A DNA stretch of 64,000 nucleotides from an uncultured Alphaproteobacteria bacterium (GCA_963806465.1 CAWDZD010000051.1:32810-96809), one strand, 5' to 3'. Counted from the first letter of the stretch, positions 30,746 to 48,368 are shown. Numbers and translations are program-made. The notes: generated by a model from the sequence alone, not told the origin.

Positions 30746-30925
30746 CCTGCCGCAACGAAACGACCCGCCGTGTCGCGACGGGTCGCATCTTGGATTGCCG
30801 CTGCTTAGACATGATCCGGAAAAGTGGAAGCCGGTTTTCCGAAAAGATCATGCTCCACCAAAAAGCTAGAGCGCCAATCGACCCAATTGAGACGATGGCG
30901 CTCTAAGCAGACAGACGGCCAAGGA

Positions 30926-32872: not shown

Positions 32873-33476
32873 GCTCACGCGGGTTTTACCCGCGTCGGTT
32901 TGATCAGGCCCGTTTGATCAGCAAGATGGACAAACGTTAACGCGCGACGCGCGGGCAAGCGCCCGGCGCATGGATAAACATTAATGTGCGAAATGCTTTG
33001 AAGGAGCCCACGGCGCTATTAGATTGAAGCTAATAGGCCAACCGGGCGGCACACCATCCCCCGACACCCTGCCGCCCGATCAGAAGCCTAAGCTGAGGCA
33101 ACAGCCTAACAACCCCGAGCATCTATGCGCTTGGGGTTCTTTTTTGTGGCGACAAAGTGCCTTTGTTCGAGCGTCGCCCATTTTGTTGAAGCCTGTGGCG
33201 CATCGGCCACAATGCAAAACCACGCAGCCGAACCCGAACGGCTCAAGCGGCCGATCGCACCGTTGCGAAAGCGCATTGTGTCAGAAAAGCAGCAGCGGCG
33301 ATCCGGCCAACAATCCACCGACAAGCAGCATTGCCCATTCAGTTGCTCGAAGCGACAGCAGTCTGCCGTCGTTCACCACGTAGCGGATCATTGCCAGTAC
33401 CCTTCCCCCAAGAACTGCGAGATTCTGCCCCGAGAATCTGCCCCAAAGAATTCGATGTGCCGCACCATAGCGAAGG

Positions 33477-33572
33477 ACCGCGCAAGAAGCTGTCGCCTGG
33501 AGGCAACACTGATCTTAAAAAGGATCGCCTGAATGAAAGATCGCGCTAGAACCTGTCGCCTGGAGGCAACAC
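33477..33572. repeat. Two direct copies of a ~33-nt element, each containing the hairpin TGTCGCC-TGGA-GGCAACA
   Basis: gaccgcgcaagaagctgtcgcctggaggcaacac (33477-33509) and gatcgcgctagaacctgtcgcctggaggcaacac (33539-33572). Confidence 0.75.
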
Positions 33573-34348
33573 CTATAAAAAAAGCCACTAGCGGCAGTCC
33601 CGGTTGGAGCGGGCACATCGACCGATTTGCAATTGGCGTGGCCGCTTCGCCTGAGCGCATACCACGCGCCCGCCAGCGTAACCCGGCCTCCTGCGGAAGA
33701 GTGCATGATGTGCGCTAATTGAGCGGCTCGGAGAGCCTGCTCGGCGTCAATTCTAATAACGTGATTGGGATTGGGCCGTTCGTCCGCATCCCCCTGGCTG
33801 TAGTCGCGGAAAGGGCCGTCACGCGCGGTGATCACCGCGCGCACACCCTCTTGCTCCGCCCGGTGAATGAAATCGATCGCGTCCGGAGTGTTGCGCATCA
33901 ATCCGTCGAGGATCGGCCCGAGAATCTGCGTGCTGTTAAGCCCCATGTTCTCGTAGGCCTGGTTGACGATGAGTTTCATTGCCGCCAGTTGCGAGGACGG
34001 GATCGAGGCGAGCTGCTGCGCCAAGTGGCGGACCGTCGCTTCCAGTTCGGCGAAAGGTACAGCGCGGTTAATGACACCGACGTCGGCAGCCTCGCGGCCC
34101 GAAAGCGGTTTGCCGGTCAGTGCGTATTCCTTGGCCTTCGTCAGCCCGAGCCGATAAAGCCATAGCCCGCTCAGGTAACATCCCCACATCCGCGCGTACG
34201 GCGTTCCGATCCGCGCGTCTTCGCTGGCAATGACAAGATCGGCGCACAGTGCGGTGTCGCTGCCGCCGCCGACGCACCAGCCGTGCACCTGCGCGATGAC
34301 CGGTTTTGGCGCGCGCCACATGCACATGAACTTCTGCGTCGGCGCCAA
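33515..34348 (-). pseudogene. Enoyl-CoA hydratase/crotonase-family gene lacking roughly the first third (5'-truncated)
   Basis: The ORF begins inside the fold at KPVIAQVHGWCVGGGSDTALCADLVIASEDARIG (the oxyanion-hole region). No crotonase N-terminal segment appears in any frame between 34349 and the tRNA fragment at 34471. The tail after about 33720 looks non-homologous. Confidence 0.6.
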
Positions 34349-34470: not shown

Positions 34471-34530
34471 TGGTCGGAGTGGCAGGATTTGAACCTGCGA
34501 CCCCCTCGTCCCGAACGAGGTGCGATCCCG
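34471..34530 (-). pseudogene. tRNA 3' half only (long variable arm, T-arm, acceptor and CCA; Ser/Leu-type); putative att remnant
   Basis: The minus strand reads ...cacctcgttcgggacgagggggtc GCAGG TTCAAAT CCTGC CACTCCG A CCA. No complementary 5' acceptor strand (CGGAGTG) or anticodon arm lies within 130 nt upstream. Confidence 0.65.
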
Positions 34531-34837
34531 GACGTCTCTTGAAAGATCATCGTTTTTCGCGCGCATCCGACCCTGTTTGTTCACATTCGATTCACGCGAA
34601 GCTTTGGCCGACGTTTGGCCGGAAGAACACCGCGCACTTTGCGCCTCGCCGATCGTCGCAGTGCCAAGTAGATGGCGGCCATGAACGAACGAGAGGTCTT
34701 CCGCCGCCGTTGACCGTCGAAGATCAATCCGTCACCGGACCGGGGCTTTCACTCGCTGAGTGGGCAAACACCTGGATGTTGGCCCAACGTGAATCAGGTA
34801 AGTTGGCCGCCCCAGGCATCGAGACCGATGGTGTAGC

Positions 34838-35086
34838 ATGTCACAGCATGCCGAGATGAGTAGCGGGCCTACGACCCCGCCGATTACCTGCTCCGCCGCG
34901 GCTCAACGCATGCACGCCCACCGGAAAAGGCGCCAAGCGGGCCTTCGTTGTCTGACGATCGAGTTACGCGAAACAGAAGTCACCGAGCTAATCCGAAGGA
35001 AGCTCCTGGAAGCCGGTGCGCGTCACGACATTCACGCTATCCGCAGCGCGCTTCACCGGCACCTAGACGAGAGCTTAGGTGCATGA
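34838..35086 (+). CDS. Small hypothetical protein (82 aa)
   Basis: AHRKRRQAGLRCLTIELRETEVTELIRRKLL resembles small proteins seen on rhizobial mobile elements. This is from memory and is not verified. Confidence 0.5.
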   Translation: MSQHAEMSSGPTTPPITCSAAAQRMHAHRKRRQAGLRCLTIELRETEVTELIRRKLLEAGARHDIHAIRSALHRHLDESLGA

Positions 35087-35194
35087 AGGGGTCCTCTGAT
35101 CTCGCGCCCCATTTCCCTCCTCCAAAATACTCCGGAAATATCGTATTTTATCCGAACCGCTCTGAAAGCCTTGATTTTCCCGGACTAAAAAACC

Positions 35195-35653
35195 ATGGGC
35201 AGACCCAAAGGCGCACGAAACAAATCGACTATCATCAAGATGGCCGAAAAGGAATTGGTCGATGAGAAATACGACGGCCAAACTCTCGATTGCCTGTTCG
35301 TCATCGAAAAGGCGATGAAGCACTTTTACATCCAAGCTGAAACCGGAAAGGCCGTTGGCCGTAGCCCAGAACAGGTAGACGAGGACTATCGCCAAGCCGC
35401 GGCAATGGCCAACCTAGCGGTTCCTTACAGGCATTCACGCCTTAGCGCAGTGAAGCTTGCTGGTGACCCGAACAATCCAGCCCGGTTCAAGGACGATGCC
35501 ACCGCCGACGAGCTACGCGCGGAGCTTATGAAGCGGCTTAAGATTTTGGTTTCGGCGGGCCTGATCGACCTAAAAGCTTTGCCGGTGCCTGATGGGGGAA
35601 TAGCGAATCAGTCGATACCCGGCGGCGCTCAATCGCGGATCAACGAGGAGTGA
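35195..35653 (+). CDS. Hypothetical protein, paralog A (152 aa; MGRPKGxxN N-terminus)
   Basis: About 55-60% identical to 47465..47920. Shared blocks: DPNNP, RFKDDATADELRAELMKRL, SAGLIDLKALP and GGIANQSIPG. Confidence 0.7.
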   Translation: MGRPKGARNKSTIIKMAEKELVDEKYDGQTLDCLFVIEKAMKHFYIQAETGKAVGRSPEQVDEDYRQAAAMANLAVPYRHSRLSAVKLAGDPNNPARFKDDATADELRAELMKRLKILVSAGLIDLKALPVPDGGIANQSIPGGAQSRINEE

Positions 35654-35693
35654 CTTTTACACGACCCTCGTGCGAACTGTGTCAATCGGTGCC
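35654..35693 (+). repeat. Island repeat family, copy 1 (part 1: CTTTTACAcg..TGCGAACTGTGTCAATCGGTGCC)
   Basis: Starts right after the stop codon of paralog A. Confidence 0.8.
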
Positions 35694-35747
35694 AGCAGCG
35701 CAATTTGCTGTGCCAAATAGCGCTGCATTCTGCCGGGAGGAGCAACA

Positions 35748-37004
35748 ATGGACACCGTAAGTCGAACGCGCCTGGATGTGCCCGAGCCCTATCTAACACC
35801 CGAGCAATTGATATCGCGGGCTCGCGCGCTCCGGCCGATGGTGCGGGCAGAGGCAGAAGAGGCAGAGCAGCGTGGCTACTACTCCGAGACGTTGCACAAC
35901 GAGTTCACCAAAGCGGGCTTCTACCGGTGCCTTCAGCCGCGCCGGTTCGGCGGCTATGAATTCAGCATCCGCACCTTCTTCAAGAGCATGATTGAAATTG
36001 CCGCAGGCGATCCGGGCATCGGTTGGTGCCTAACGCTGGCCTGCGGCCATGCCCTGCAGATCGGCACTAATTTCGACGAAGCGGCGCAAGCCAGAATTTT
36101 TGGTCCTGACGGCCATTTCATTGCGCCGTATTCACCGAGCGGGCCCTCGGCTGACGCCGAATGCGTTGCCGTGGCCGGTGGCTATCGCGTCAAGGGCAAA
36201 TGGCGCTACGCCTCAGGTGTGCCCTATGCCACCCACTTCATGGGGTTGGCACCGCTCAAGCGCTCGCGTCCGGGCGGCCCGACGCGCAAGCTTGTTACCG
36301 TTGTGGTGCCGCGCGACCAATTCGAGATGCTCGACGATTGGCACGACATGTTCGGCCTCAAAGGCAGCGGTTCGAACAGCGTCGTCATCAAGGACGCATC
36401 AATTCCCGAGGATTTCGTGGATGAGACCATTTTCGCAGACGAAGGCAGTGGGGATATGCCGGGCGTCAAGCTGCACGGCAATCCCCTGTACAACGGGATT
36501 TTCATGGCCTTCGGCGCGGGGGAACTAGCCTGTTCGCAGGTCGGCGCGGCCTGGGCCGCATTGGAGGAGTTTGAAAAGCATATCCGCACGACGAAGCCAC
36601 TGCTGTCGTCCAAACCGATCTTCAAATATCAGCATCACGACTGGCAACGCATCTTCGGGCTTGCACTATCGATGACCCATGCCGCTGAAGCCGTGTTGCT
36701 GCGCAGCGCGGAGCTTTATGTCGAATATGCCAAGGCGCGAACGGAGCGCACCGGCCAATTCACGCAGAAGGAAACAATGTTGTTGATGGGCATGCAGCAT
36801 CAGGCCGCGCGCATCGCGTGGGAGGCGGGGTATGATTTGTTCCGCGCCTCAAGCTCGGCGAGTATCCGCGATGGTCAGCCAATGCAGCGGTTCTTTCGCG
36901 ACTTCGCGACGTTCCGTAACAACCCGGTCCATCAGCCCGATTTCGCCGCGACCCGCATCGCGCAAGCCTATTTCGGGCTTCCAATCGAAGACTTCGATTT
37001 GTGA
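35748..37004 (+). CDS. Acyl-CoA dehydrogenase-fold protein (likely a two-component flavin-dependent monooxygenase type)
   Basis: GGGAGGAG SD. The N-terminus YLTPEQLISRARALRPMVRAEAEEAEQRG...FYRCLQPRRFGGYE is typical of the ACAD-type-2 / HpaH-like oxygenase group. Confidence 0.8.
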   Translation: MDTVSRTRLDVPEPYLTPEQLISRARALRPMVRAEAEEAEQRGYYSETLHNEFTKAGFYRCLQPRRFGGYEFSIRTFFKSMIEIAAGDPGIGWCLTLACGHALQIGTNFDEAAQARIFGPDGHFIAPYSPSGPSADAECVAVAGGYRVKGKWRYASGVPYATHFMGLAPLKRSRPGGPTRKLVTVVVPRDQFEMLDDWHDMFGLKGSGSNSVVIKDASIPEDFVDETIFADEGSGDMPGVKLHGNPLYNGIFMAFGAGELACSQVGAAWAALEEFEKHIRTTKPLLSSKPIFKYQHHDWQRIFGLALSMTHAAEAVLLRSAELYVEYAKARTERTGQFTQKETMLLMGMQHQAARIAWEAGYDLFRASSSASIRDGQPMQRFFRDFATFRNNPVHQPDFAATRIAQAYFGLPIEDFDL

Positions 37005-37092
37005 CCGTCCACGACGTCTGGGGAGCATATGATCGCTATGTTTCGATGCATCGGCGGAGAAAATCGCAGGGGGGCAGTTGTGATTTTCCACA

Positions 37093-37163
37093 TTGCGAAC
37101 TGTGTCAATCAGTGTCACGCCGCGCCTTGTGTCGTCTCAAACAGTGCCAGCCTCGATCAGTGG
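37093..37163 (+). repeat. Island repeat family, copy 2 (parts 1 and 2 contiguous, part 2 with a 5-nt insertion)
   Basis: ttgcgaactgtgtcaatcagtgtcac...cttgtgtcgtctcaaacagtgccagcctcgatcagtgg. Confidence 0.8.
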
Positions 37164-37270
37164 ACCGCCGCACAGATGCCGAGGGCCTTCCTGACACGAT
37201 TTGGCACCGACGGTCGTTGACGGCGCGTGGTATCATCTCGTTATGCAACCGTATCCCTGGGATCCCCTCC

Positions 37271-37696
37271 TCAGAACTTCTTGAAGCATTCCCCTAAATT
37301 GAACATTTGCACGCTACCACACTCCACCACGTTGTTGCTGCCGTCCTGATGTACTTCGATGCTGTAACTGCGTCCATTCGTACACATGACATTCCAGAAT
37401 GTGTCATTCTCATTTGTCGGCGGAACGGGTAGTTGCGGGCGACGATCACCTTTGGGCTGCGGAATGTCTTTCATCGTGCCCTGATAGAATGCTGTCTTGC
37501 CCTTGCATCCTTCGCCAACGATTTTGCCGAGGATGTCGGCTTGACGTTGAGCCGACATTGCAAGGAGCGAATCGTTTGCGGGATTATTTACGTCACCGGC
37601 CCAAGTGATCGTTGTTGACAGAAAAGCGGCCAGCGGGAACGCGAAACGTAATGCGTCCCTCCTTGATGGACTCACTGCTCTTACTTCGATCCTCAT
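37271..37696 (-). CDS. Secreted hypothetical protein (141 aa), low GC
   Basis: Start trimmed to ATG 37696 with a GGGGAGGGA SD. Signal-like LRFAFPLAAFLSTTITWA. Four Cys residues. Confidence 0.65.
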   Translation of the reverse strand: MRIEVRAVSPSRRDALRFAFPLAAFLSTTITWAGDVNNPANDSLLAMSAQRQADILGKIVGEGCKGKTAFYQGTMKDIPQPKGDRRPQLPVPPTNENDTFWNVMCTNGRSYSIEVHQDGSNNVVECGSVQMFNLGECFKKF

Positions 37697-37947
37697 TGTC
37701 CCTCCCCTCAGCATCCTGATCTCGGTGGGGAGAAGTCGCTTCCGGCAGATGCAACAGGGGCAATTTAGTTTAGCCCTAAAATTTGGGCTCCGGAATCGGG
37801 CCTCTAGCTGGCGTGAAGTAGCTTGTGGGTGTGAGGCGACCATCATTAGGCGCTCTGGATATTGTGGCCCGTTGCGGGCTGCCGCGATTTGAACCGCTTG
37901 CCGCCGAATTTCGACACACCCTTAGAGCAAGCCCAATGGAGGGTGCC

Positions 37948-38136
37948 ATGACAAACGGTTCGAGCGGCCTGCAACAGCATGACTATTATCTCGTACAACT
38001 CGACGGGCGGACAAAATCGAAGCATAGGCGCTTCATCGATGCATTGCGCGTGGGCTTGCAACTGAGGGATCAGTTCCCAGCGCACATCGTCAAGGTCCGG
38101 TCGGCTGAAATGGTCCAGCGGACCACGTTGCACTAG
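37948..38136 (+). CDS. Small conserved hypothetical protein (62 aa); paralog of 12126..12323
   Basis: ATG 37948 follows GGAGGG. MTNGSSGLQQHDYYLVQLDGRTKSKHRRFIDALRVGLQLRDQFP. Confidence 0.55.
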   Translation: MTNGSSGLQQHDYYLVQLDGRTKSKHRRFIDALRVGLQLRDQFPAHIVKVRSAEMVQRTTLH

Positions 38137-38275
38137 TCCGCGGTGGAGGGAAAAGGCTCTGGGTCGATCCGACCACGGCTGCCGCCAATATGATTTGGAC
38201 CGACCTTAACCACTTCGACGCATGCTCCCAGACATTGCGAACCGTCCCCGAGGCAGGACTAGGCGCGAGACACCG

Positions 38276-38722
38276 ATGAAAGTTGACGTCTCCACAGCAT
38301 TGGATTGCTCCGCCGCCAAGGCGTGGGGTGAGGTGCAAAAGAGCGCGCTTCTCCTCCACGTTATCTGGCCGCTTGCCCGGATAGGCACATTCGGTCTGCC
38401 GGACTTGCCCGAACAATGGAGCCAGGGGCAGACGGTGCAATGTCGCCTGTACGTTTTCGGGTTCATTCCAATCGGCGTCAGGGACCTTTATTTTCAGAGG
38501 ATTGACCAAAATGCCTATTGCATCGTCACGCGGGAGAGCGATCCGGTGGTCCGAAGCTGGAATTACACGATCGCGATCACACCGTCAGGACCCCACCGAT
38601 CTATTTATCGTGACGTGATCGACATCGACGCCGGCCACTTGACGGTGCTGGTATGGGCCTGGACCAATTGGTTCTACCGGCATCGCCAGCGGCGCTGGCG
38701 GGCGCTGGCTAAGACTTTATGA
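38276..38722 (+). CDS. Hypothetical protein, possibly SRPBCC/START-like
   Basis: Start trimmed to ATG 38276 (MKVDVSTALDCSAAKAWGEVQKSALLLHV...). The fold assignment is tentative. Confidence 0.5.
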   Translation: MKVDVSTALDCSAAKAWGEVQKSALLLHVIWPLARIGTFGLPDLPEQWSQGQTVQCRLYVFGFIPIGVRDLYFQRIDQNAYCIVTRESDPVVRSWNYTIAITPSGPHRSIYRDVIDIDAGHLTVLVWAWTNWFYRHRQRRWRALAKTL

Positions 38723-39429
38723 CGACCAAAAAGGTCGCGAGGGCTGATAAGCCACCTTGGAGACTGGACAAGTTGGGACCGCGTGCTGGAAACCGCGGGC
38801 GACTTGGGCCACGCTTTCCACTAAGAAAATCAGCCGACAGTGATCTCCTGCGGAGCCACTGCATACTCAGCCAATGGCCTGCCGCAGTAACGGGCGACCA
38901 GCTTTTGGAAAGCGGCATTGGCGGTTGTCTCCGATCCCTCGAACCGTCTTAGAACGAGCCTATCAATTCCGAGGTCATCCCCGCTGATATGGGCGATCAC
39001 ATCGATCTTAGTTGTATCGGCCAAGAATGTGCGCATGACGATCCCCCCTGCAATTACCGTCCGACGACGACCCAACGCCAGTCATCCACCGTGGTTCCTC
39101 GAAAAGCAGAATTTGTCCACTGGATTGGATGACCACGTCGCGGATCTCGACGGCGGTCACTTGCGACGGGCTGATGGCTGATGGCACCCTGCACCTAGCC
39201 CTCGCACCGATTGGCACTGGTTACGCCGCCCACGGACGCCCGCGATGGCGCACGAGCCACCGAAAGCGGAATAGCCACTCGTATCTGCGCTCTAGCAAAC
39301 GCCGCCATATAAACTTTACAACCGTGTGGCCGACTACCCGCGTTTAGTATTGGGCGATGTCGCCGACTAATATGCGTGAAGCCGCCGTACTCGTTGCTTG
39401 AGACGCTAAAAGCGCGGCGGAAGGTTGTC

Positions 39430-39855
39430 ATGCAAGTCACCGACGTCCGCGCCGTGATTGCCATCGGTCGCAGCGGTCAGTTCGGCCTCCGCGGCCGTCT
39501 GCCGTGGGAGGGCAATCGCGGCCGCGAATACGTCATCGATGTCGAGCGTTTCTTCGAGTTGACGCGCGGGCACGTTCTCATCATGGGTCACCGCACCTTC
39601 ATCTCCGTCCCGGACTTTGCCTTCAAGGACCGCGACATCATCGAGATTCATACCTCCGACAGGCCGGCTGACGTGCTGGCGCGTTTTCCGCGCCGCATCG
39701 TTTTCATTGGCGGCGGCCCGCCCGTATACGCGGCCTATGCGCCCTTCATCCGCCATTGGGACATCAACCGGCTGCCTTATGACGGTGAGGCTGACCGTTG
39801 GTTCGATCCCGCTTGGCTGGTCGCCGGCGGTACGCGATCACTGTCCGGGGTTTGA
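39430..39855 (+). CDS. Dihydrofolate reductase-like protein (141 aa)
   Basis: GGAAGG SD. AVIAIGRSGQFGLRGRLPWE...FFELTRGHVLIMGHRTFISV...IVFIGGGPPVY follows the DHFR pattern (IAA..G.IG....LPW / vIMGRKTy.S / viGG). Confidence 0.65.
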   Translation: MQVTDVRAVIAIGRSGQFGLRGRLPWEGNRGREYVIDVERFFELTRGHVLIMGHRTFISVPDFAFKDRDIIEIHTSDRPADVLARFPRRIVFIGGGPPVYAAYAPFIRHWDINRLPYDGEADRWFDPAWLVAGGTRSLSGV

Positions 39856-40106
39856 TATCCTTGTCTACCTCGTCCTCATCATCGAGGGGTTCTAACTCCT
39901 CCTCGAAAATGCCTTCTGGCGGCGATACCGCCGGGCATCGTTTCGCCGGCCACAGCGATAGTTCGCCACCGCGGCTTCAAGCTGCGCGCGAAGCGCAGCC
40001 TTGCTCGGTGTGGTCATGAAGGTCCCCCGACCCTGAGGCGACTCGATAAGCCGCCCCCTGCAATCAACCCCGGCCCCGAAACGGGGCAGTGTTAGGGTTA
40101 GACTCG

Positions 40107-40139
40107 CGCGCAAATGCGCTTGTGTCAAACAGTGCCACG
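40107..40139 (+). repeat. Island repeat family, copy 3 (part 2 only)
   Basis: gcgcaaatgcgcttgtgtcaaacagtgccacg. Confidence 0.75.
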
Positions 40140-40271
40140 ATGCATTGGAGGGAGTGCCGACCTGATGAGCCGTTTCCAGGAAGGCCAAAGAGAATGCATA
40201 GACGAACCTTCCTGCGCCTTCGGGCCCGAGCGGAAGCGGCGATGTCCGGTAGATGAAGTTATAGGGTAGTG

Positions 40272-40316
40272 ACTTTTACAAGGTCTTTATTGCGAACCGT
40301 GTCAATCAGTGCCGTG
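40272..40316 (+). repeat. Island repeat family, copy 4 (part 1 only)
   Basis: cttttacaaggtctttattgcgaaccgtgtcaatcagtgccgtg. Confidence 0.8.
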
Positions 40317-40421
40317 ACCGATCATGTTTGGAGCGTGGCGGACATGGTCGCTATGAGGTGGCCGAACCGGCTCCAGCGAAACGCGGAGCGTATCGAAAAC
40401 GGGCAGCGTAGGGAGAGAAGT

Positions 40422-40721
40422 ATGCGTCTGAAACGAATAGGCGATGCCGCAGGCCGCGACGAATGGTCGGATTCAGCCGATTATAGTTCTAGCAGCCCCT
40501 ATCGCGGTGACCTCGATGACGGCCAGCGTGTATATAACCATTTCAGTAATTTTGGCTCGGGCTTGCAGAACACAAATCTTTTTAGAGTGTCATTGGAGTG
40601 GTCAGACGTGGAGGCAATCATTGCGGCCTTCGTCGAAATGGGGCATCCCAAAGCCGCACGCCTAGAACGCGCAAAAAGGCTTAGCACGGCGGTTGAACAG
40701 ATTGCCCAAAATTCAAATTGA
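40422..40721 (+). CDS. Hypothetical protein (99 aa) sitting between repeat part 1 and part 2
   Basis: ATG 40422 follows GGGAGAGAAG. MRLKRIGDAAGRDEWSDSADYSSSSPYRGDLDDGQRVYNHF... Confidence 0.5.
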   Translation: MRLKRIGDAAGRDEWSDSADYSSSSPYRGDLDDGQRVYNHFSNFGSGLQNTNLFRVSLEWSDVEAIIAAFVEMGHPKAARLERAKRLSTAVEQIAQNSN

Positions 40722-40740
40722 GGCGCTACCCGCGGCAGCG

Positions 40741-40788
40741 TAAATGCGTTTGTGTCAAACGGTGCCGGCGTCGATCAGTGCCAAAGCG
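40741..40788 (+). repeat. Island repeat family, copy 5 (parts 2 and 3)
   Basis: taaatgcgtttgtgtcaaacggtgccggcgtcgatcagtgccaaagcg. Confidence 0.8.
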
Positions 40789-40838
40789 TGAAACAACCCA
40801 GCCCGCAACCACCAACCGCCGGTTTTGGAGTATGGTGC

Positions 40839-40963
40839 AAGCCGTCCATCGATCAGGCCCAGGTGGAAAAGCTCAAAGCCGATGGCCTCGGCGCTACCGA
40901 GATTGCCGGCGGCTGAACATTGGCCGTGCTTCGGTCTATCGCGTATTGGCGGACGCCGACTAA
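40839..40963 (+). pseudogene. Remnant of a serine recombinase (resolvase/invertase): C-terminal HTH only, with an internal frameshift
   Basis: KPSIDQAQVEKLKADGLGATEIAGG* in one frame, then RLNIGRASVYRVLADAD* in the next. Together these read ...GATEIARRLNIGRASVYRVL, a typical resolvase HTH. No catalytic N-terminal domain lies upstream. Confidence 0.55.
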
Positions 40964-41205
40964 ATATCGGTTGCCGGTGTCTGAACCGCTTACTGGGTGA
41001 GTGGCAGACTTCCGCTAATCGGACGGCCGGACGGTCCCATCTCATAAGTTATCCACATTTCGTCACGTGTTCGCCATCATCGACAGGAACAAGAACGCCT
41101 TGCATCGTGGGGATGCGGGACTTGGAGTGTGGAACGCGACCACCTTGTGCGTTCCACGCCGCCATTTCGGGGAAGACTTTTGCACCCGGCTTGGAGGAGC
41201 CCCCG

Positions 41206-41298
41206 ATGTTCAAAATGCCCGCATATGATCCGGTCGGAATTGCAATCCTGGGATTTGGTGTCTTGGCCGTGGTGGCTCTGGGATTTGCCTTTTACTGA
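41206..41298 (+). CDS. Possible 30-aa single-TM peptide
   Basis: GGAGGAG SD 6 nt upstream. MFKMPAYDPVGIAILGFGVLAVVALGFAFY. Length alone makes this uncertain. Confidence 0.3.
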   Translation: MFKMPAYDPVGIAILGFGVLAVVALGFAFY

Positions 41299-41349
41299 TC
41301 GGCAAGCCCTTTCCGCTCAATTCGATAAGTCTGCGTAGAGAGTGCCGCT

Positions 41350-41541
41350 ATGCTTCTCCCAATGGACTTCCGGCGTCAGGCGCGCGTGTGCGCGCGCTTA
41401 GCCGAAGACTGCGATGATCGGCACCTAGCCGAGCGCCTCGAAGCAATGGCTTCGGATTTGCTGGCTCAGGCTGGCGCTATCGAAGAGTTGCCCAGTGAAC
41501 GGATCCGATACCAGGAACGAAATTGTTTTGTGCTTTCGTAG
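41350..41541 (+). CDS. Small hypothetical protein (63 aa)
   Basis: FRRQARVCARLAEDCDDRHLAERLEAMASDLLAQA resembles a common small helical rhizobial protein type. Confidence 0.4.
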   Translation: MLLPMDFRRQARVCARLAEDCDDRHLAERLEAMASDLLAQAGAIEELPSERIRYQERNCFVLS

Positions 41542-42044
41542 CCGGCGGTGCGCGGCCTCGCCTGGGACACCGCAAAAGTCCTGAATACGACCCTATGCAC
41601 GGCGCTCGCCCCCGACCGCTTCAAAGCGTAGGGCGGCACTAGTTGCCGGGAACGGGTAGTGAGTCCCTTGAATAAGTCTGCCGAAACGGGCCTCTAGGCC
41701 GCATCTCAAACTGCGCCTATTGTGTTTGCATGGGGCGGGTATTCATTCCCATTTTTTCGGTGCTTGGGGCGGCCACCGTTGCAATCCTATCTGAGGTCGT
41801 CGCGCACAATTGCTTTGGCATCGCTATCGATGCGATCCGCACCGACGCCCTTCGAGCCGCTTGCGCTGTCATTGTTCTAACGTTTGGAATCATAGTGAAG
41901 CGGAACAGGTAATGCCGAACCCTCGCAAACGCCCCAGGGGACTGCTCCCAATCGGCCAAGCTGGTCGTGGACATCGCCACGGGCGAGGTCTCCCATGCTT
42001 GAGAAGCGGGGCAAACACCCCGCGTGTGTCGCGCGTGGCAATGG

Positions 42045-42252
42045 CTACTTTCTGCTTTTGACTCGGTGTTCCTCAAAGCGCCGCAGGTTCGCCTCGAACA
42101 GGCGAAGTGTTCTTTCGGCCTCCAATGTATGCACCCCAGCAGCCCTCAAACGGACTATCAGGCCCTTCTGTTGTTGTGTGATGCGCCGCCCTTCGGCGAC
42201 GAGCTCCTCGGCGCGGCGAAGATTGTTTTCGCTGGTCCGGCTTGTTCTTCAT
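42045..42252 (-). pseudogene. Small coiled-coil protein gene with an apparent frameshift just after its start
   Basis: ATG 42252 gives MKNKPDQRKQ... in one frame. The adjacent frame, which has no start codon, reads SENNLRRAEELVAEGRRITQQQKGLIVRLRAAGVHTLEAERTLRLFEANLRRFEEHRVKSRK*. Confidence 0.4.
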
Positions 42253-42729
42253 GCCGGGTCACGTGATGGTCAAGTTAAGCAAGTCAGCGACAGGCCCTAA
42301 GGATTGATCTGTCTTAGTGTGCGGTGAAACTTTCCTCAGCGAGTTCCGCCAACGTGCTAACGGTGCTCGGTCTCCGGGCGCGGCGATTGCGTCATTCTGG
42401 GTCCTCGTGGCCGTTCTTCTCGCCGGCTGCTCGACAGGCGACGGGGTAGGTTCGTTCATCGTCGATCCCGGTCACTATTCCGTTTATCACTGCGATGGCC
42501 TTGCGGCGCGATTAAAGGTTTTGCTCGCGCGGGAACAGGAAATCGGGCGAGCAAAGGCAGCGGCGTCTTGATCGGAAACCTCGCGTCTCGCGTTGACTAG
42601 GGCGATGCGCGCCTGTAGGGGCGACCTCAGTTTGTGGTATCTGAATATGCTCGTACTTACTTGCTGGAAAGTTCGGAAAAACCTAGTCTCATGCTTGCTA
42701 GACTTGCAACCGCGAGTGCGGAGGTCGTT

Positions 42730-43173
42730 ATGCCGGCGCTGAACGCGGGAATAACACCTCCTGGGCAAGGCGACCGCGACACCGTCTGGAACATCCTGGG
42801 ACAGACCTATTATCTCAAGGAAGTCTGCGATACGTCGTTCGCTTTCGAGGTCGTCGGCGAACCCGGCACCTTCGTGCCGGCGCATATCCACCCGACACAA
42901 GACGAATTCATCTACCTCATCGAAGGCGAGATGGAACTGACGCTCGACGGGCGTCCGCACGGTCTTACCACAGGTGGACTTGCGCGAATGCCCATGGGCG
43001 TTCCGCACAGCTACAAGAACGTCGGCAATAAAACGGTGCACGCCCTGTTCTGGGTTACCCCGACGCGCAAGCTGTATGAATTGTTCACCCGGATTCATAA
43101 TCTCACGGATCCGGTCGAAGTGGTCGCGATCTCGGCCACCTGCGAGGTGAATTTCCTGCGGCCGGCAGCATGA
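42730..43173 (+). CDS. Cupin-domain protein
   Basis: GGAGG SD. GTFVPAHIHPTQDEFIYLIEGEMELTLDG...MPMGVPHSYKN are cupin motifs 1 and 2. Confidence 0.8.
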   Translation: MPALNAGITPPGQGDRDTVWNILGQTYYLKEVCDTSFAFEVVGEPGTFVPAHIHPTQDEFIYLIEGEMELTLDGRPHGLTTGGLARMPMGVPHSYKNVGNKTVHALFWVTPTRKLYELFTRIHNLTDPVEVVAISATCEVNFLRPAA

Positions 43174-43349
43174 GGTCGCACCGGCGCTAGGACGCGATGA
43201 GGCGTGTCTGGCTTGTTCGAAAGCGTCAGCCTGAAATGCAGTCGTCTTAGAAGCGTTTTTCAAAAGCTTCGGCGGTTTTGCGAGTCGCGTTGGGCAGGCG
43301 CAGAACCTCAGGCGGCGCCAATTCAATTTTGCACAAGGGTGTGGACCCC

Positions 43350-44496
43350 ATGTACTGGCGCGTCGCGCTGCTGGTCTTGTTGACCACGAGCGTACTACAA
43401 GCCAAGGCCGAGCCGCCCGACGAGCAAGCACTACGTCTGCTCAATCACTACCGCCAGCTCGCCGGGCTGACGCCGGTCAAGCTCGATCGAAAGCTCAGTG
43501 CGGGATGCATGGAGCATGCAAATTACATGCTGCAGAACCAAGGCACCGACGCGATGGTTGGGCTCAATCCTCACACCCAGCGGTCGAGCCTGCCTGGCGC
43601 GAGCGCCGCAGGTGCGGCATGTGCGAAGGCGGCCGATCTGTTCCCCAGGGTCTCCGATCTCGGCGTCGCGATCGACGTCTGGATGGCCGGCATGTACCAC
43701 CGCCGCCCGATGCTCGATCCCCAACTCGAGCGGATCGGCGTCGGTTATGCCCGCCTTCCCGATGGGATGCTGACGGCCGCGTTGAGGTTCGAAAACGCCA
43801 GGCGCAGGGCCGGTACCTGGCCCGTCGCGTATCCTGCGGACAAGCAGACAGACGTTCCACTAGATTATGGCGCCGAATTCCCCAACCCGATCCCCAACCA
43901 AGGCACCGGAGGCTATGCGATCACGCTACAGTTTCCACCGTTCGATAAGGTCACCGACGTTACTGCGAAGCTCACCGATGCCAAGGGCAACCCCGTTCAG
44001 TTTTTCCTTTCTGATCCTGAACATCCGGCAACGTCGTTCGGCCAGTTCGGCCTGATCTGCCTCATTCCGAAGCTGTCACTCCAGGCACAGAATGCATACA
44101 TCATCCGGATCGATGCAACTTGGAACGGCAAACCCGGCACCTGGACATGGAGCTTCTCGACGGTCTCGCTGCGCGGGATCGAAGCGTCCGATGATCGCGC
44201 GGTCGCCGGCGCGATAAATGTCGCGAAGTCTGGTCCACGGCACAGTCGGTTTCGGCGGGATGAGGAACGGCGAGACGGTTTTCCTTCAACTCGCCGCGGG
44301 CGAAGGGAGCCGTTACAAGATGCTGTCGGTGATCATCCCGATCGCCGTGTGGCGGCAGATCGCTGGGACCGCCGAGCCTGGATCGTTCAAGGGCAAGATC
44401 ATCGAAGTGCAAACGACGCCGCAAGTCGTCAAGGGTAATTACGTAAACATGACGATCTCGGCCGCCACGCAGCTTCGTGTTGTCGCTGCGCGGTGA
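43350..44496 (+). pseudogene. Secreted CAP/SCP (PR-1-like) domain protein, apparently frame-disrupted near 44215-44230
   Basis: Signal MYWRVALLVLLTTSVLQAKA, then LLNHYRQLAGLTPVKLD...CMEHANYM...WMAGMYHRRPML. After ...AINVAKS the frame turns Arg-rich. The +1 frame (ORF 44218..44496) reads plausibly: SLVHGTVGFGGMRNGETVFLQL... Two separate genes remain possible because a TAA precedes ATG 44218. Confidence 0.55.
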
Positions 44497-45351
44497 TTAA
44501 GCGCTCGCGACTGAACAAAGCGCGCATCGCGAGGCTAACCCGGAATCACGTGCCTCAACCGAACCCCGGAAGCGGATTTGCTGCTAGTCGCGCGCCTTGA
44601 TCTCCCGCGTCAAGATGCCGTGCTCGTCGACTACCAATCGCCGATCCTCATCCTGATCGCGGGCGACATGCCCTGGTTGCCGCCGGCTCGCTCAGCGCGC
44701 AGTCGATGCCTGAGTCGCAAGCGCTCGATCTCTAGCTCAACTAACAAATCGGAATCGTAAGTCATGACCCGTCCCCCGACGATGCCGAGTCCCAGCCTTC
44801 GCCCAAAACGTGGCGACGAGTGGGCGAGATCTGGGCAGCGGCGTGGACAATTGGGCGCATGAAGTCAAGTCAAGAACCGAGAGCAAGCATCAGGCCGCCG
44901 CGCGGAGCACAATCACGTTGAGCGTGACCGCACAACGAAAGACTGAGATATACGTCCTAGTTCGGGACGAGCGGGCCTCAAGCATCTTCTTGAGGATTGT
45001 GCGCGCCTGCTCAGATTTCAAACGAGAACGGTTCGTGCTGCTTCGACTTACCCTCAAGCTTTTGCTTCAGCTCATTGGCCTCAGCAAAGATCGCATCGAT
45101 AATCTTCTGTCGTTCAGCTTCCGTGGATTCATTGGTTGGCGCTGCTAGATTGCCGATCCTGCGAATCGCAATGAGCGCTTATCGACACGCCGTGGTGCCA
45201 ACCGCAGAAAGCGCTCCCGTCGTGACTCACGTCCGGATTCAGTAAACAAATTGCTAGCTGCTCCCGTTGCCTGCTCCATCCTACGAATCGACCTTGAACG
45301 CATCCGGTGGCGAATTACGAAAAAGGAGTCGGATGTCTGCCCTTGGACCTG

Positions 45352-45810
45352 TCATTCCTTCTTTGGGTATTTGCCGACGAAGATCACCGCACGACCCGCG
45401 GCAACGTCATGACTGATTGGGTTGAAGGATAGCTCGATTTCGCCGTGTGTCGCCGCAGCGAGCGCATCCAACACTTTGAGCGCGTCTGAAATATTATCGG
45501 AGGTGACCTCTATGCCCTCATCGAGAGCTTTTTCTGGCACGGGACTAATGACGCTCTCGACCCCAGCGAACCGTGCCGCGTCATCAATGTCCTGCGCGAA
45601 GCCGAAACAGTCGCAGTCCATATAGGTCGCAATAGCTTCACCTGGGGACTTTGGAATCGCTTTTAGCTTCTGCCCGAGTACTGTCTTCTGTTGATCGGTG
45701 AGACGCGGCCATGACTGCGCGCTATCTGCAGAGGCTCTACTGCATCGCGACAAACTGATCGCGATCACAATGCCGGTGAGCAGAGCCAAGATGGTCCAGA
45801 ATTTTCGCAT
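45352..45810 (-). CDS. Membrane-anchored/exported hypothetical protein (152 aa)
   Basis: Start trimmed to ATG 45810. MRKFWTILALLTGIVIAISLSRC. Confidence 0.55.
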   Translation of the reverse strand: MRKFWTILALLTGIVIAISLSRCSRASADSAQSWPRLTDQQKTVLGQKLKAIPKSPGEAIATYMDCDCFGFAQDIDDAARFAGVESVISPVPEKALDEGIEVTSDNISDALKVLDALAAATHGEIELSFNPISHDVAAGRAVIFVGKYPKKE

Positions 45811-46277
45811 GTGACGATCAGGTCGGAGCCATTTTGCGCATCGGGCGCATCTCGGCTCCGGCGGCCTTCTTCGTCCGATCCCGTTCTTCAGCAAGCGACA
45901 TCGACGCCTAGTTAGCTTGATTTTGCGCGATGGTCGGGGCGTTTTGGCATTAAGGTTTATGGAGGCTCGGATGCTGTCAGTAGCGGTGTTTGAGCGCCAA
46001 TTCCCCGGTTGCGGACGAGGCAATCGCATGAGGGCAACCATTAGCAACACTTAGGTGGTCACGCGACTTTGCGCGAGCCGCACACGTCGAGAGCCAGCGG
46101 ACGTGACTACCGCGCCGTGTGTGCGAGATTGATGGCGGGAGGGTTTATCGAGGGTGTGTCGATGTCCGCCAGTTCTAGCCGACATCCATTCTTGTCGATA
46201 AATCAACTCTAAGCTGATCGCACAGCCGGCATCTACGGACGATATTCATCCGACCCATTTTGGTTTAAAATGTCCTT

Positions 46278-46940
46278 ATGAAAATCAGGCTCGGGGGTTT
46301 TCCCTGCCGGCAAATGCGGGTCGTGCGGGGTCTAACGTATGCTGTGCTGCTGATACTTGCCGCCTGCGTAGGCGGGACGACCAGCGCCGGCATTTATACG
46401 ATGCCGTGGGACCAACAGCGAGGGCCTAATCCCGTCTTCGCCCGCCAGGTCGTCGCCTACCCGACGCACGAGCCGCCGGGAACGATCATCATCGATCCGG
46501 CCAGTCATTTTCTCTACTTCATCCACGATGCCGGACAAGCCATTCGCTATGGCGTGGGCGTCGGGAGGGAAGGCTTTGTCTGGTCCGGGCGTGCGACAGT
46601 CCACAGCAAGCAGGAATGGCCCGACTGGTACCCGCCTGCGGAAATGTTGGTTCGCAAGCCGGAGCTCAGACAGTACATGGCGCAAATGCCGGGAGGTCTT
46701 GGAATGAAAGGCGGTCCCGAAAACCCACTTGGCGCCCGCGCCATGTACCTTTATTCCGGCAACAAGGACACCCTATACCGCATCCACGGCACCAATGAAC
46801 CCTGGACCATTGGCACCAACGTCTCGTCCGGCTGTATCCGCCTGACGAACGAGGACATCGTTGATCTCTACAACCGCACGCCAATCGGCGCGAAAGTCAT
46901 CGTGTTCGGGACCGGCAACCCGGTCGCCGCTGGGCAATAG
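46278..46940 (+). CDS. L,D-transpeptidase (YkuD/ErfK family)
   Basis: IRYGVGVGREGFVWSG..., YRIHGTNEPWTIGTNVSSGCIRLTNEDIVDLY (catalytic HG...SxGCIR). Confidence 0.9.
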   Translation: MKIRLGGFPCRQMRVVRGLTYAVLLILAACVGGTTSAGIYTMPWDQQRGPNPVFARQVVAYPTHEPPGTIIIDPASHFLYFIHDAGQAIRYGVGVGREGFVWSGRATVHSKQEWPDWYPPAEMLVRKPELRQYMAQMPGGLGMKGGPENPLGARAMYLYSGNKDTLYRIHGTNEPWTIGTNVSSGCIRLTNEDIVDLYNRTPIGAKVIVFGTGNPVAAGQ

Positions 46941-47370
46941 GGCCGCCGCTGTCACGCGGCGTGAGCGGCCGCAGCTATGCGCCGACTGGTGGCCATTCTG
47001 CTCGAAAGGGACTTCGCCCGAATTCAGGCAAAGTGTTTCAGCGTGGTGTCCATGACGATGTAGAAGGACTACGCGACTAATCCCGCGGCGATCGTGGCCT
47101 CGACGCTTAGCGCTTAAACGCGATCCGACCGAGGAAGGGTGGCTGCCGCGCCCGGCACCGGGTCACATCGCAACCTTGCCGGCGAGGGGAAGCACCGTCA
47201 TGGCTTGTCTCCCGCGAACAATCGATATCGTCTCATACGATATCCTTCCTTTGTTAGCGTGTGCACTTCGGCCGGCGTCTGCAGCGTCACCAGCAGAAGG
47301 ATCATTGCGCGTGAGAAGTGTCAGCTTGCTGAAACAGTGCCACTAGTCCCCCACCGGGGGGATACGCCAG

Positions 47371-47464
47371 CTTTGGCACTGATCGGCACCGGCACTGTTT
47401 GACACAAACGCATTTGCGCACGTGGCACTGATTGACACAGTTCGCACGAAGGATCGTGCAAAAG
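47371..47464 (-). repeat. Island repeat family, copy 6 (complete unit: parts 1, 2 and 3)
   Basis: The minus strand reads CTTTTGCACGATCCTTCGTGCGAACTGTGTCAATCAGTGCCACGTGCGCAAATGCGTTTGTGTCAAACAGTGCCGGTGCCGATCAGTGCCAAAG. It starts right after the stop codon of paralog B. Confidence 0.85.
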
Positions 47465-47920
47465 TCACTCCCCGTTGATCCCCGATTGATCGACGCCGGG
47501 TATCGGCTGATTCGCTATTCCACCGGCCGGGGCCGGCAGCGCCTGCAAGTCGATTAGCCCGGCCGAGATCAGTATTTCCAGTCGCTTCATGATCTCCGCC
47601 CGTAGCTCTTCCGCCGTCGCATCGTCCCTGAAATGCACAGGATTGTTCGGATCCCCGAGTATCTTCGTCGCCGTCAGTTTCGAATGTCGAAAAGGTGCCG
47701 CCAAAACCGCAAGATGTGCCGCATCCCGGTAATCCTGGTCTATCTGCTCGGCTTTGCGCCCCTTGCGCGGTTCAAGCGCCCGCCGAAAGAAATAGGATGC
47801 CGCCACCTCGATCATATAAAGCGTGTCAAAGATTTCGCTCGGATCACGCAGTTTTCCGGCTTTCGCCTCGGCCTCGCGAACCAGCGTGCGGCGATTTTTG
47901 GCGCCCTTCGGTCGACCCAT
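47465..47920 (-). CDS. Hypothetical protein, paralog B (151 aa; MGRPKGxxN N-terminus)
   Basis: Start trimmed to ATG 47920. See 35195..35653. Confidence 0.7.
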   Translation of the reverse strand: MGRPKGAKNRRTLVREAEAKAGKLRDPSEIFDTLYMIEVAASYFFRRALEPRKGRKAEQIDQDYRDAAHLAVLAAPFRHSKLTATKILGDPNNPVHFRDDATAEELRAEIMKRLEILISAGLIDLQALPAPAGGIANQPIPGVDQSGINGE

Positions 47921-48368
47921 GATATTTCCGTCCGGAAAACAGTGATTGTTCAATAGAGCTTGCGGATAGATACGATATTTTTGGAGTATTTTGGAGGAGC
48001 GAAATTGAGCGCGAGGCCGGGAAGGCGAACTATACGACTGTCATTTTGAAGACGCTGGTCTCGGGAGTAGGGCCTCGGAGTTGATGTGTGGAAACCTCGG
48101 ACTGCGCGGACTTTGTCGGCCTTGCTCGAACAGCTTGTCGTCCGAGTCACTGACAATCACTGCGGCAACGTCTGGAATTTGGGGGGGCAAAGCAGAAGTG
48201 CATGGCGCGCGCTCAAAACGTCGCTGATGCCCTTTTTGGATATCGGCGACTACTAGAATGATGCTGGGCCCGCCGGTTGTCGAGGTCTCACTTCGGGCGA
48301 TACATTTGGTGCTTACGATATTTCGCCCTATCGTCCGAGCGTAAAACTGAAGCGGTAGGAAATGCACG

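Follow-up and report, generated by a model that had tools for sequence, protein, structure and literature searches.

Mobilisable islands may carry an origin of transfer (oriT) together with an auxiliary gene, as with mobI and the oriT of SXT/R391 and of their mobilisable genomic islands (MGIs). In satellites such as P4 and the Staphylococcus aureus pathogenicity islands (SaPIs), the replication origin is an iteron array near the replicase gene. P4-like satellites have a variable hotspot directly beside the conserved cos site (PMC9122126). This study describes a family of iterated 15-nt boxes in a 64,000-nt stretch of DNA from an uncultured Alphaproteobacteria bacterium (GCA_963806465.1, CAWDZD010000051.1:32810-96809), called the window here and numbered from its first letter. 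The boxes are grouped in arrays, called tails, most of which stand directly behind small genes, usually an orphan gene termed F0. The box tail is a real, context-bound element of an undescribed family, and its boxes probably form the array of protein sites in an end module of small integrating islands. The window's genome is labelled G000 (9.56 Mb in 82 contigs), its contigs are given as C plus a number and loci as L plus a number, and the window is C51:32810-96809.

Box tails in the window

Eleven matches to the 15-mer GTGTCAAWCRGTGCC were found in the window at no more than 2 mismatches, compared with 0.52 expected, and none of 100 shuffles reached 11. Each box is built of two GTGYC pentamers, 10 bp apart. 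An initial annotation, made from the sequence alone, had listed six copies; all six were found, and 10 of the 11 matches fall inside them, the remaining one being a weak match at 39203-39217. The tails in the window, with the F0 genes and the other pieces that adjoin them, are as follows.

35195-35653, plus strand, F0 copy 1, the 'MGRPKG' gene, 152 aa
35654-35725, plus strand, tail copy 1, from the stop codon of F0 copy 1, with the part-1 box at 35679-35693 and a decayed second box (part 2)
37080-37163, plus strand, tail copy 2, no gene fragment ahead, boxes at 37102-37116 and 37134-37148, then a decayed part 3
40105-40139, plus strand, tail copy 3, part 2 alone, left side cut
40140-40271, plus strand, decayed part 3 joined to the last ~130 nt of an F3 gene (class A continuation)
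40272-40316, plus strand, tail copy 4, part 1 alone, from the stop codon of the F3 remnant
40317-40737, plus strand, insert of ~420 nt splitting part 1 from parts 2 and 3, with a 99-aa open reading frame (ORF) inside at 40422-40721
40738-40790, plus strand, tail copy 5, parts 2 and 3
47318-47341, plus strand, inverted, split box beyond copy 6
47347-47362, no strand, GC-rich hairpin/dyad between part 3 and the inverted box of copy 6
47362-47464, minus strand, tail copy 6, complete, boxes at 47424-47438, 47391-47405 and 47375-47389
47465-47920, minus strand, F0 copy 2, 152 aa, 57% aa identity to copy 1

Much of the initial description of these copies stands. Copy 6 has the three-part layout given for it, with its full boxes 33 nt apart from start to start, and the stop codons of the paralogous genes at 35195-35653 (plus strand) and 47465-47920 (minus strand) are the starting points of copies 1 and 6. 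Copy 1 starts where it had been placed (35654-35693) but reaches ~35725 with its decayed second box. The stated lack of dyad symmetry is right for single boxes, but the complete unit runs on into the hairpin at 47347-47362 and the inverted split box at 47318-47341. Finally, the boxes were said to form a local repeat family occurring only at 35.6-47.5 kb, which is true within the window but not of the genome, where they are spread over more than 20 contigs.

Several of the truncated forms recur elsewhere. The left breakpoint of tail copy 3 is found again in a solo tail at C71:312630-312660, and the segment at 40140-40271 aligns with intact F3 genes on C8, C20, C38 and C41, with an identical junction in at least eight other loci. 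No second case of parts 1 and 2 split by an insert was found in the genome, and the 99-aa ORF at 40422-40721 had no match in Pfam, PHROG or PADLOC.

Genome-wide distribution and tail anatomy

Across G000, 84 box matches were found at no more than one mismatch, compared with none for a reversed control. After clustering they resolve into ~47 tail loci, several per region and concentrated in mobile-DNA regions. Thirty-two of the 47 lie directly behind a full or 5'-truncated F0 or F3: 27 behind F0 (13 near full length and 14 5'-truncated) and five behind F3 or its 3' remnant, with ~15 tails standing solo. A tblastn search gave ~33 F0 loci in the genome at 50-94% aa identity, many of them 3' fragments. 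Nucleotide homology between copies sets in ~95 nt upstream of F0, increases through the 3' half of the gene and on through the tail, and breaks off after it. A generic intergenic repeat, frequent irrespective of context, is not what the genome-wide motif scan revealed: the boxes are widely spread, yet they keep to one gene context.

The spacing within the tail is regular, and in the genome-wide census parts 1 and 2 are spaced 29-33 nt (mode 33) and parts 2 and 3 are spaced 16 nt, or 15 nt in a single locus. The tail is composed of three direct boxes, spaced as regularly as the iterons of a replication origin. Part 3 is followed by a short common stretch ending GTATGAAA, after which one of several continuations begins. 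In class A the final ~130 nt of the F3 gene follow, with a constant start junction and differing distal cut points; in class B it is the GC-rich hairpin and then the inverted split box, and an inverted box follows at least eight other tails. Breakpoints between parts 1 and 2 vary among the other truncated tails. At its far end the tail abuts sequences of at least five classes, and because the flanking sequences also occur elsewhere in the genome without a tail, this end is a genuine junction of unrelated segments. The earlier suggestion that copies mark segment boundaries is borne out by this.

Conservation of the boxes in other genomes and metagenomes

Samples of 120 and 400 genomes from the GTDB family of G000, 15 congeners included, and of 400 genomes from its order, each a subset of its group, yielded neither the box nor F0. 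Three other alphaproteobacterial metagenome-assembled genomes (MAGs) carry the module of gene and tail in a few copies each. F0 is common in soil metagenomes, where one search gave 491 relatives and another 801 clusters at 50% identity, none of them named and none with a Pfam domain. Of the 63 metagenome loci that had sequence past an F0 homologue, 36 showed boxes within ~140 nt downstream of it, over a range of 34-91% F0 identity.

The boxes are nearly invariant even beside F0 homologues at 34-60% identity. When 33 non-identical modules are aligned from a common anchor, the 15-nt box has close to the maximum information content and the spacers have little, and in pairwise comparisons the third codon positions of F0 are 38-51% identical where the first and second positions are 40-80% identical. 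Conservation of the boxes therefore exceeds that of synonymous sites in the gene ahead of them. The distant homologues L064, L045, L048 and L027 have core-motif arrays in the opposite orientation, and because of these inverted arrays a DNA site is favored over an RNA site. Conserved boxes combined with diverged spacers and synonymous sites and with inverted arrays are the signature of a selected DNA site.

Genes ahead of the tail

F0 had no credible family match in Pfam, PHROGs, PADLOC or a PDB sequence profile, and apparent matches to Tymo_coat and to katanin were rejected as noise. Its AlphaFold model is of low confidence (pLDDT 67); Foldseek returned nothing for it at E <= 0.001, and VIA-align returned generic helical hairpins only. 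F3 is a zinc-ribbon-like protein of ~185 aa with several Cys pairs that is unrelated to F0, has no match in Pfam, PHROG or PADLOC and is followed by the same tail in each of two genomes. An N-terminal GRP motif common to F3 and F0 was considered and rejected, since the F3 copy of G402 does not keep it. Among the F3 copies are the following.

L005:1591-2160, F3 in G000, contig C8
L102:7568-8302, F3 in genome G402
40140-40271 of the window, F3 remnant

Position of the tail in intact islands

Three intact copies, L101, C7 and C54, have a common order of integrase, HTH_17 regulator or excisionase, replicase, small ORF, F0 and tail. L101, from the MAG G401, begins at a tRNA-Ser gene with an integrase that has Arm-DNA-bind_3, Phage_int_M and Phage_integrase domains, followed by a 281-aa ORF, a weak HTH_17, a Prim-Pol protein, a 559-aa protein like the C-terminal half of phage primase-polymerases, a 170-aa ORF, F0, the tail and inverted boxes. 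C54 of G000 has the same layout, likewise adjoins a tRNA-Ser gene and has a REP_ORF2-G2P replicase. C7, also in G000, repeats the layout with an HTH_17 above the Pfam threshold (E = 9e-8) and an 802-aa primase-helicase with DUF7146, Toprim_3 and DUF3987 as its replicase. Each is a small island combining an integrase, an AlpA-type helix-turn-helix (HTH) and a primase or replicase, the last as Toprim_3/DUF3987 in C7. In this composition, and in the tRNA-Ser location of L101 and C54, the islands resemble P4-like and PICI-like satellites.

The replicases of the three islands are mutually unrelated, and the tail is independent of them. L101 and C54 have in common a block of 537 bp at 93% identity, made up of the F0 3' half, the tail and 215 nt beyond; their integrases are ~60% identical and the rest does not align. 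F0 and the tail are thus an exchangeable block, with which the conserved portion of the island ends. Sequence beyond the tail switches to variable cargo. The true end of the island is not fixed, because no attR repeat was found.

Proposed role of the module

The boxes would be the sequence-constrained core of a cis-acting DNA tail of 100-170 nt, which together with the gene ahead of it, usually F0, would make a two-part module. This module would be the last conserved block, on the integrase-distal side, of small self-replicating integrating islands, with cargo beginning right after the tail. Taken alone, this structural part of the proposal, an array of protein sites in an island end module, is one that we consider likely. 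Further, an oligomeric small protein, most likely F0, may recognise pairs of GTGYC pentamers, in three direct boxes and one inverted box, across the GC-rich dyad, and the protein-bound array may mark excised island DNA for helper-dependent transfer. That the tail would be a recognition site for transfer follows by elimination among the island modules (integration, regulation, replication and transfer) and from analogy. The whole chain, in which F0 reads a box array at the boundary of island core and cargo for helper-dependent DNA transfer, is plausible and is put forward tentatively. Two candidate models would fit it. The first is packaging, either with a small terminase and pac site as in satellites or with a cos site beside a cargo hotspot as in P4, and the second is mobilisation at an oriT with an auxiliary protein.

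The tail can be compared with the cos site of P4-like satellites, shared with P2, and with the R sites of lambda cosB that are read by gpNu1. It is likewise a short conserved cis site in an integrating, self-replicating, satellite-like element, with several short protein sites next to a GC-rich dyad, and as at P4 cos there is an abrupt switch to variable cargo beside it (PMC9122126). In contrast to P4, P2 and lambda, the island has no sequence or protein homology to them and no psu, sid or delta genes, and the box site occurs in no viral collection searched. SaPIs and other phage-inducible chromosomal islands (PICIs), with their small terminase and pac site, also have a small integrase-distal gene beside a cis site and the order integrase, regulator, replicase. 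They differ in that F0 is not detectably a small terminase, that the island has no capsid-remodelling genes and that its host is an uncultured soil alphaproteobacterium for which no helper phage is known. The oriT of SXT/R391 is similar in having a small gene beside a cis site, with accessory-protein repeats and then a GC hairpin, but here there is no relaxase match (two families tested) and no nick site identifiable at the tail.

A more specific version of the packaging model is that F0 and the boxes would be a new small-terminase-like protein with its own pac/cos site, belonging to unrecognised phage satellites of soil Alphaproteobacteria, and that the site would anchor a cargo/defence hotspot as P4 cos does. 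This version is rather unlikely. A bolder variant would have the tails act as recombination anchors that capture cargo and shuffle it between islands without a dedicated integrase.

A number of results weigh against F0-dependent transfer as the role of the tail. F0 is without detectable likeness to small terminases or to any known DNA-binding family, and the only hints, both weak, are that its language-model neighbours are viral hypothetical proteins and that DUF5681 was matched in 1 of 30 members. F0 is also not the exclusive partner of the tail, because the tail is found behind the unrelated F3 as well. No large-terminase-like match lies within 25 kb of any tail. The nine such matches found in G000 speak for the proposal, as possible helpers, together with the lack of any match there to the two relaxase families tested, TrwC and Relaxase; in the protein-profile searches at most nine candidates were scored per genome. 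No helper-hijacking genes (psu, sid, delta, capsid-morphogenesis or packaging-redirecting genes) were recognised among the island ORFs. In IMG/VR there was no F0 relative, and the 83 single box matches there are at chance level with none paired; phage and plasmid records likewise had no F0 and no paired boxes. A search for attR through tRNA-Ser 3' repeats found none in G401 or G000. Lastly, the orientation of the tail in the main clade is always that of the upstream gene, with the hairpin after it, which also fits an element acting at the transcript level.

If the proposal of a protein-read transfer site is correct, a 15-base motif and an orphan gene would be a simple marker for integrating, self-replicating islands of soil Alphaproteobacteria. 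Such islands are now invisible to annotation, having no Pfam family and nothing in phage or plasmid collections. The motif would pinpoint the start of variable cargo, including large cyclase-STAND (signal transduction ATPases with numerous domains) proteins, giving a handle for cargo and defence hotspots in soil metagenomes, and F0 with its boxes would be a testable protein-DNA pair.

Alternative explanations

The initial annotation had read the boxes as iterons or as arm- or res-type sites. The conservation pattern agrees with protein sites in general; of the specific kinds named, arm sites are disfavored and both iterons and res sites are unlikely.

The alternative that survives best is that the boxes are arm-type or excision-factor sites on the P arm of attP/attR, read by the N-terminal domain of a P4-type integrase or by an accessory protein. 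The integrases of the intact islands have an arm-binding domain or the central domain that neighbours it, the direct repeats lie at the integrase-distal end, where a P arm is expected, and there is a recurrent junction to unrelated DNA ~20-25 nt past part 3. The boxes also resemble the arm sites of lambda (P/P') and of P4 attP in that ~15-bp direct repeats close to an island end go together with an integrase carrying an arm-binding domain. However, in L101 and C54 the interval from the tRNA-Ser gene to the integrase gene contains neither a box nor a half-box, whereas known systems have sites on both arms, and because no boxes occur beside the integrase this explanation is unlikely. In contrast to lambda and P4, there is no adjoining duplicated core, and the linkage of the boxes is to F0. 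No tRNA-derived or other attL-common repeat follows the tail, and no repeat of at least 11 nt is common to the tail side and the tRNA end, although a very short core would escape. Only four of the 47 tails have an integrase within 4 kb, and it is upstream in island order in C54 alone. Between L101 and C54 the arm-binding domain shows 61% identity, not better conserved than the rest of the integrase, yet the boxes of the two islands are nearly identical, and a C52 island with a 57%-identical integrase has no boxes anywhere on its contig.

A distinctly weaker alternative is that the tail acts as RNA, namely as a common 3' untranslated region of F0 and F3 in which the boxes serve an RNA-binding protein or a small RNA and the hairpin is a terminator. 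The start of the tail at the stop codon and its constant co-orientation with the upstream gene in the main clade agree with this, as does the hairpin stem, which is kept through changes on both sides in window copy 6 and in L013. A 181-nt tail stretch also folds better than shuffles (z = -2.9). However, the boxes do not pair with one another, and that fold owes most of its energy to the hairpin and the inverted box, elements missing from many copies. The tail matched no Rfam family and there is no U run 3' of the hairpin. The ~15 solo tails persist without a gene ahead, and the core motif is inverted relative to the gene in the distant homologues, so we regard an RNA role as improbable.

Less probable still is that the tail is functionless, whether as a selfish or hitch-hiking repeat, an element like a miniature inverted-repeat transposable element (MITE) or a recombination scar spread by mosaic duplication. 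G000 is extremely repeat-rich and mosaic, with a 1.28-kb insertion sequence (IS) in more than 25 copies and with 102 integrase (tyrosine-recombinase) and 44 resolvase matches, and several tail loci are recent segmental duplicates. The retention of boxes beside 34-60%-identity F0 homologues, where the spacers and synonymous sites have diverged, argues against a passive repeat. There are no terminal inverted repeats or target duplications at the tails, and the element is missing from the congeners and from 800 other sampled genomes of the family and order. Like REP (repetitive extragenic palindromic), BIME (bacterial interspersed mosaic) and RIME (Rhizobium-specific intergenic mosaic) elements, the box tails are dispersed, short, multi-copy and mosaic, but they differ in being tied to one gene context and to mobile islands and in being missing from congeners. 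The boxes are also not palindromic, and the earlier judgement that this is no REP-type hairpin repeat is upheld.

Replication iterons, bound by the island replicase at its origin, fare marginally worse than a functionless repeat and are very unlikely. The likeness to the P4 origin (ori/crr) and the SaPI origin lies in direct repeats at 33-nt and 16-nt spacing, roughly helical multiples, downstream of the replication genes in the intact islands. However, the same boxes occur with three unrelated replicases, so that there is no single cognate initiator, and no AT-rich unwinding stretch adjoins the tails of L101 and copy 6, where 40-nt windows have GC of 0.50-0.70 and a lone 0.40-GC window lies more than 100 nt from the tail. 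The linkage of the boxes is to F0 and not to the replicase, and replicase homologues elsewhere in G000 have no tail.

Two other kinds of site were also compared with the tail: res sites of serine resolvases are unlikely, as there are no dyad subsites and no consistent resolvase neighbour (the nearest match is 1.7 to more than 50 kb from the tails, on either side, and mapping of the 102 integrase and 44 resolvase matches against the 47 tails gave no consistent linkage), and integron attC sites do not agree with the lack of a palindrome, the variable part 1/2 breakpoints and the lack of a consistent integrase.

Cargo and other features of the window

Neighbouring genes and cargo between the tails of the window are as follows.

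34838-35086, plus strand, F10, an 82-aa gene directly upstream of F0 copy 1
35101-35146, plus strand, conserved patch upstream of F0 copy 1, with its inverted partner at 47970-48015
35748-37004, plus strand, acyl-CoA-dehydrogenase-like cargo gene between two direct tails (Pfam Acyl-CoA_dh_2, E = 6e-9)
39376-39855, lone DHFR-like gene (dihydrofolate reductase) among hypothetical genes, between the facing modules (Pfam DHFR_1, E = 4e-7)

The pair of F10 and F0 is also present on C7 and in the metagenome loci L059 and L060; F10 has no match in Pfam or PHROG. When 13 full-length copies of F0 are aligned, the patch at 35101-35146 is all that is conserved ahead of the gene. It is 89% complementary to its partner at 47970-48015 and is probably the promoter or leader of F0 copy 1.

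Two modules of F0 and tail face each other in the window across ~11.7 kb of cargo. Between them lie a complete solo tail, a split tail, and a part-2 fragment that runs into the remnant of an F3 gene having a part 1 of its own. The cargo also includes a CAP-domain gene and a YkuD-domain gene. The ORF at 40825-41298, after copy 5, had no Pfam match, and the frame from 40825 to 40963 reads like the C-terminal helix-turn-helix of a serine recombinase. When synteny with congeners was used to look for the empty site of the window island, the flanks mapped to scattered places. The region at 35.1-48.0 kb is best seen as decayed, recombined remnants of several islands. Rfam gave only a sub-threshold tRNA 3' fragment at 34482-34539, which is not beside a tail and for which no tie to the islands was established.

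Several other origins for these arrangements were considered and rejected. A diversity-generating retroelement (DGR) as the source of the 5'-truncated copies was rejected because there is no reverse transcriptase, and silent cassettes of the pilin type because the truncated copies keep the conserved and not the variable half of the gene. Rolling-circle (IS91-like) capture was rejected because F0 lacks an HUH motif. The sequence that follows the tail was also considered as the 3' half of a tRNA, from a crossover in the anticodon loop, and rejected because it matches no tRNA-Ser of G000.

Elsewhere, the cargo is repeatedly a 1043-aa protein with cyclase, AAA_16 and TPR parts. At several loci downstream of tails, class III cyclase/AAA_16/TPR (STAND-like) proteins of up to ~1043 aa were seen, at L189:5413-8544 (C7), on C8 and at C51:98k, just outside the window. 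The C51:98k protein has a SAM-like start, as judged by eye, and at the metagenome locus L072 a distant F0 homologue is likewise followed by a SAM and cyclase gene. The match of this cyclase domain to Pycsar cyclase models goes no further than generic cyclase homology.

G000 is large for its genus, with 9.56 Mb compared with 3.1-6.7 Mb for the congeners searched, and the islands would explain part of this near-doubled size. Its accessory regions are mosaics of shared patches of 0.4-3 kb, and besides the 1.28-kb IS, a 1.6-kb IS is present in more than 10 copies. A dispersed repeat of ~100 nt at ~30797-30910 of the window has dozens of copies at 80-98% identity in G000 and likewise in all congeners searched; it has no relation to the boxes and looks like the true generic intergenic repeat of the genus. 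Another repeat, of ~65 nt at ~48168-48232, just upstream of F0 copy 2, is present in at least 10 copies on C42, C44, C45, C53, C78 and C9 at 78-87% identity. To the left of the island remnants, the non-coding segment at 33472-33583 of the window holds two 49-nt direct repeats, 63 nt apart and 82% identical.

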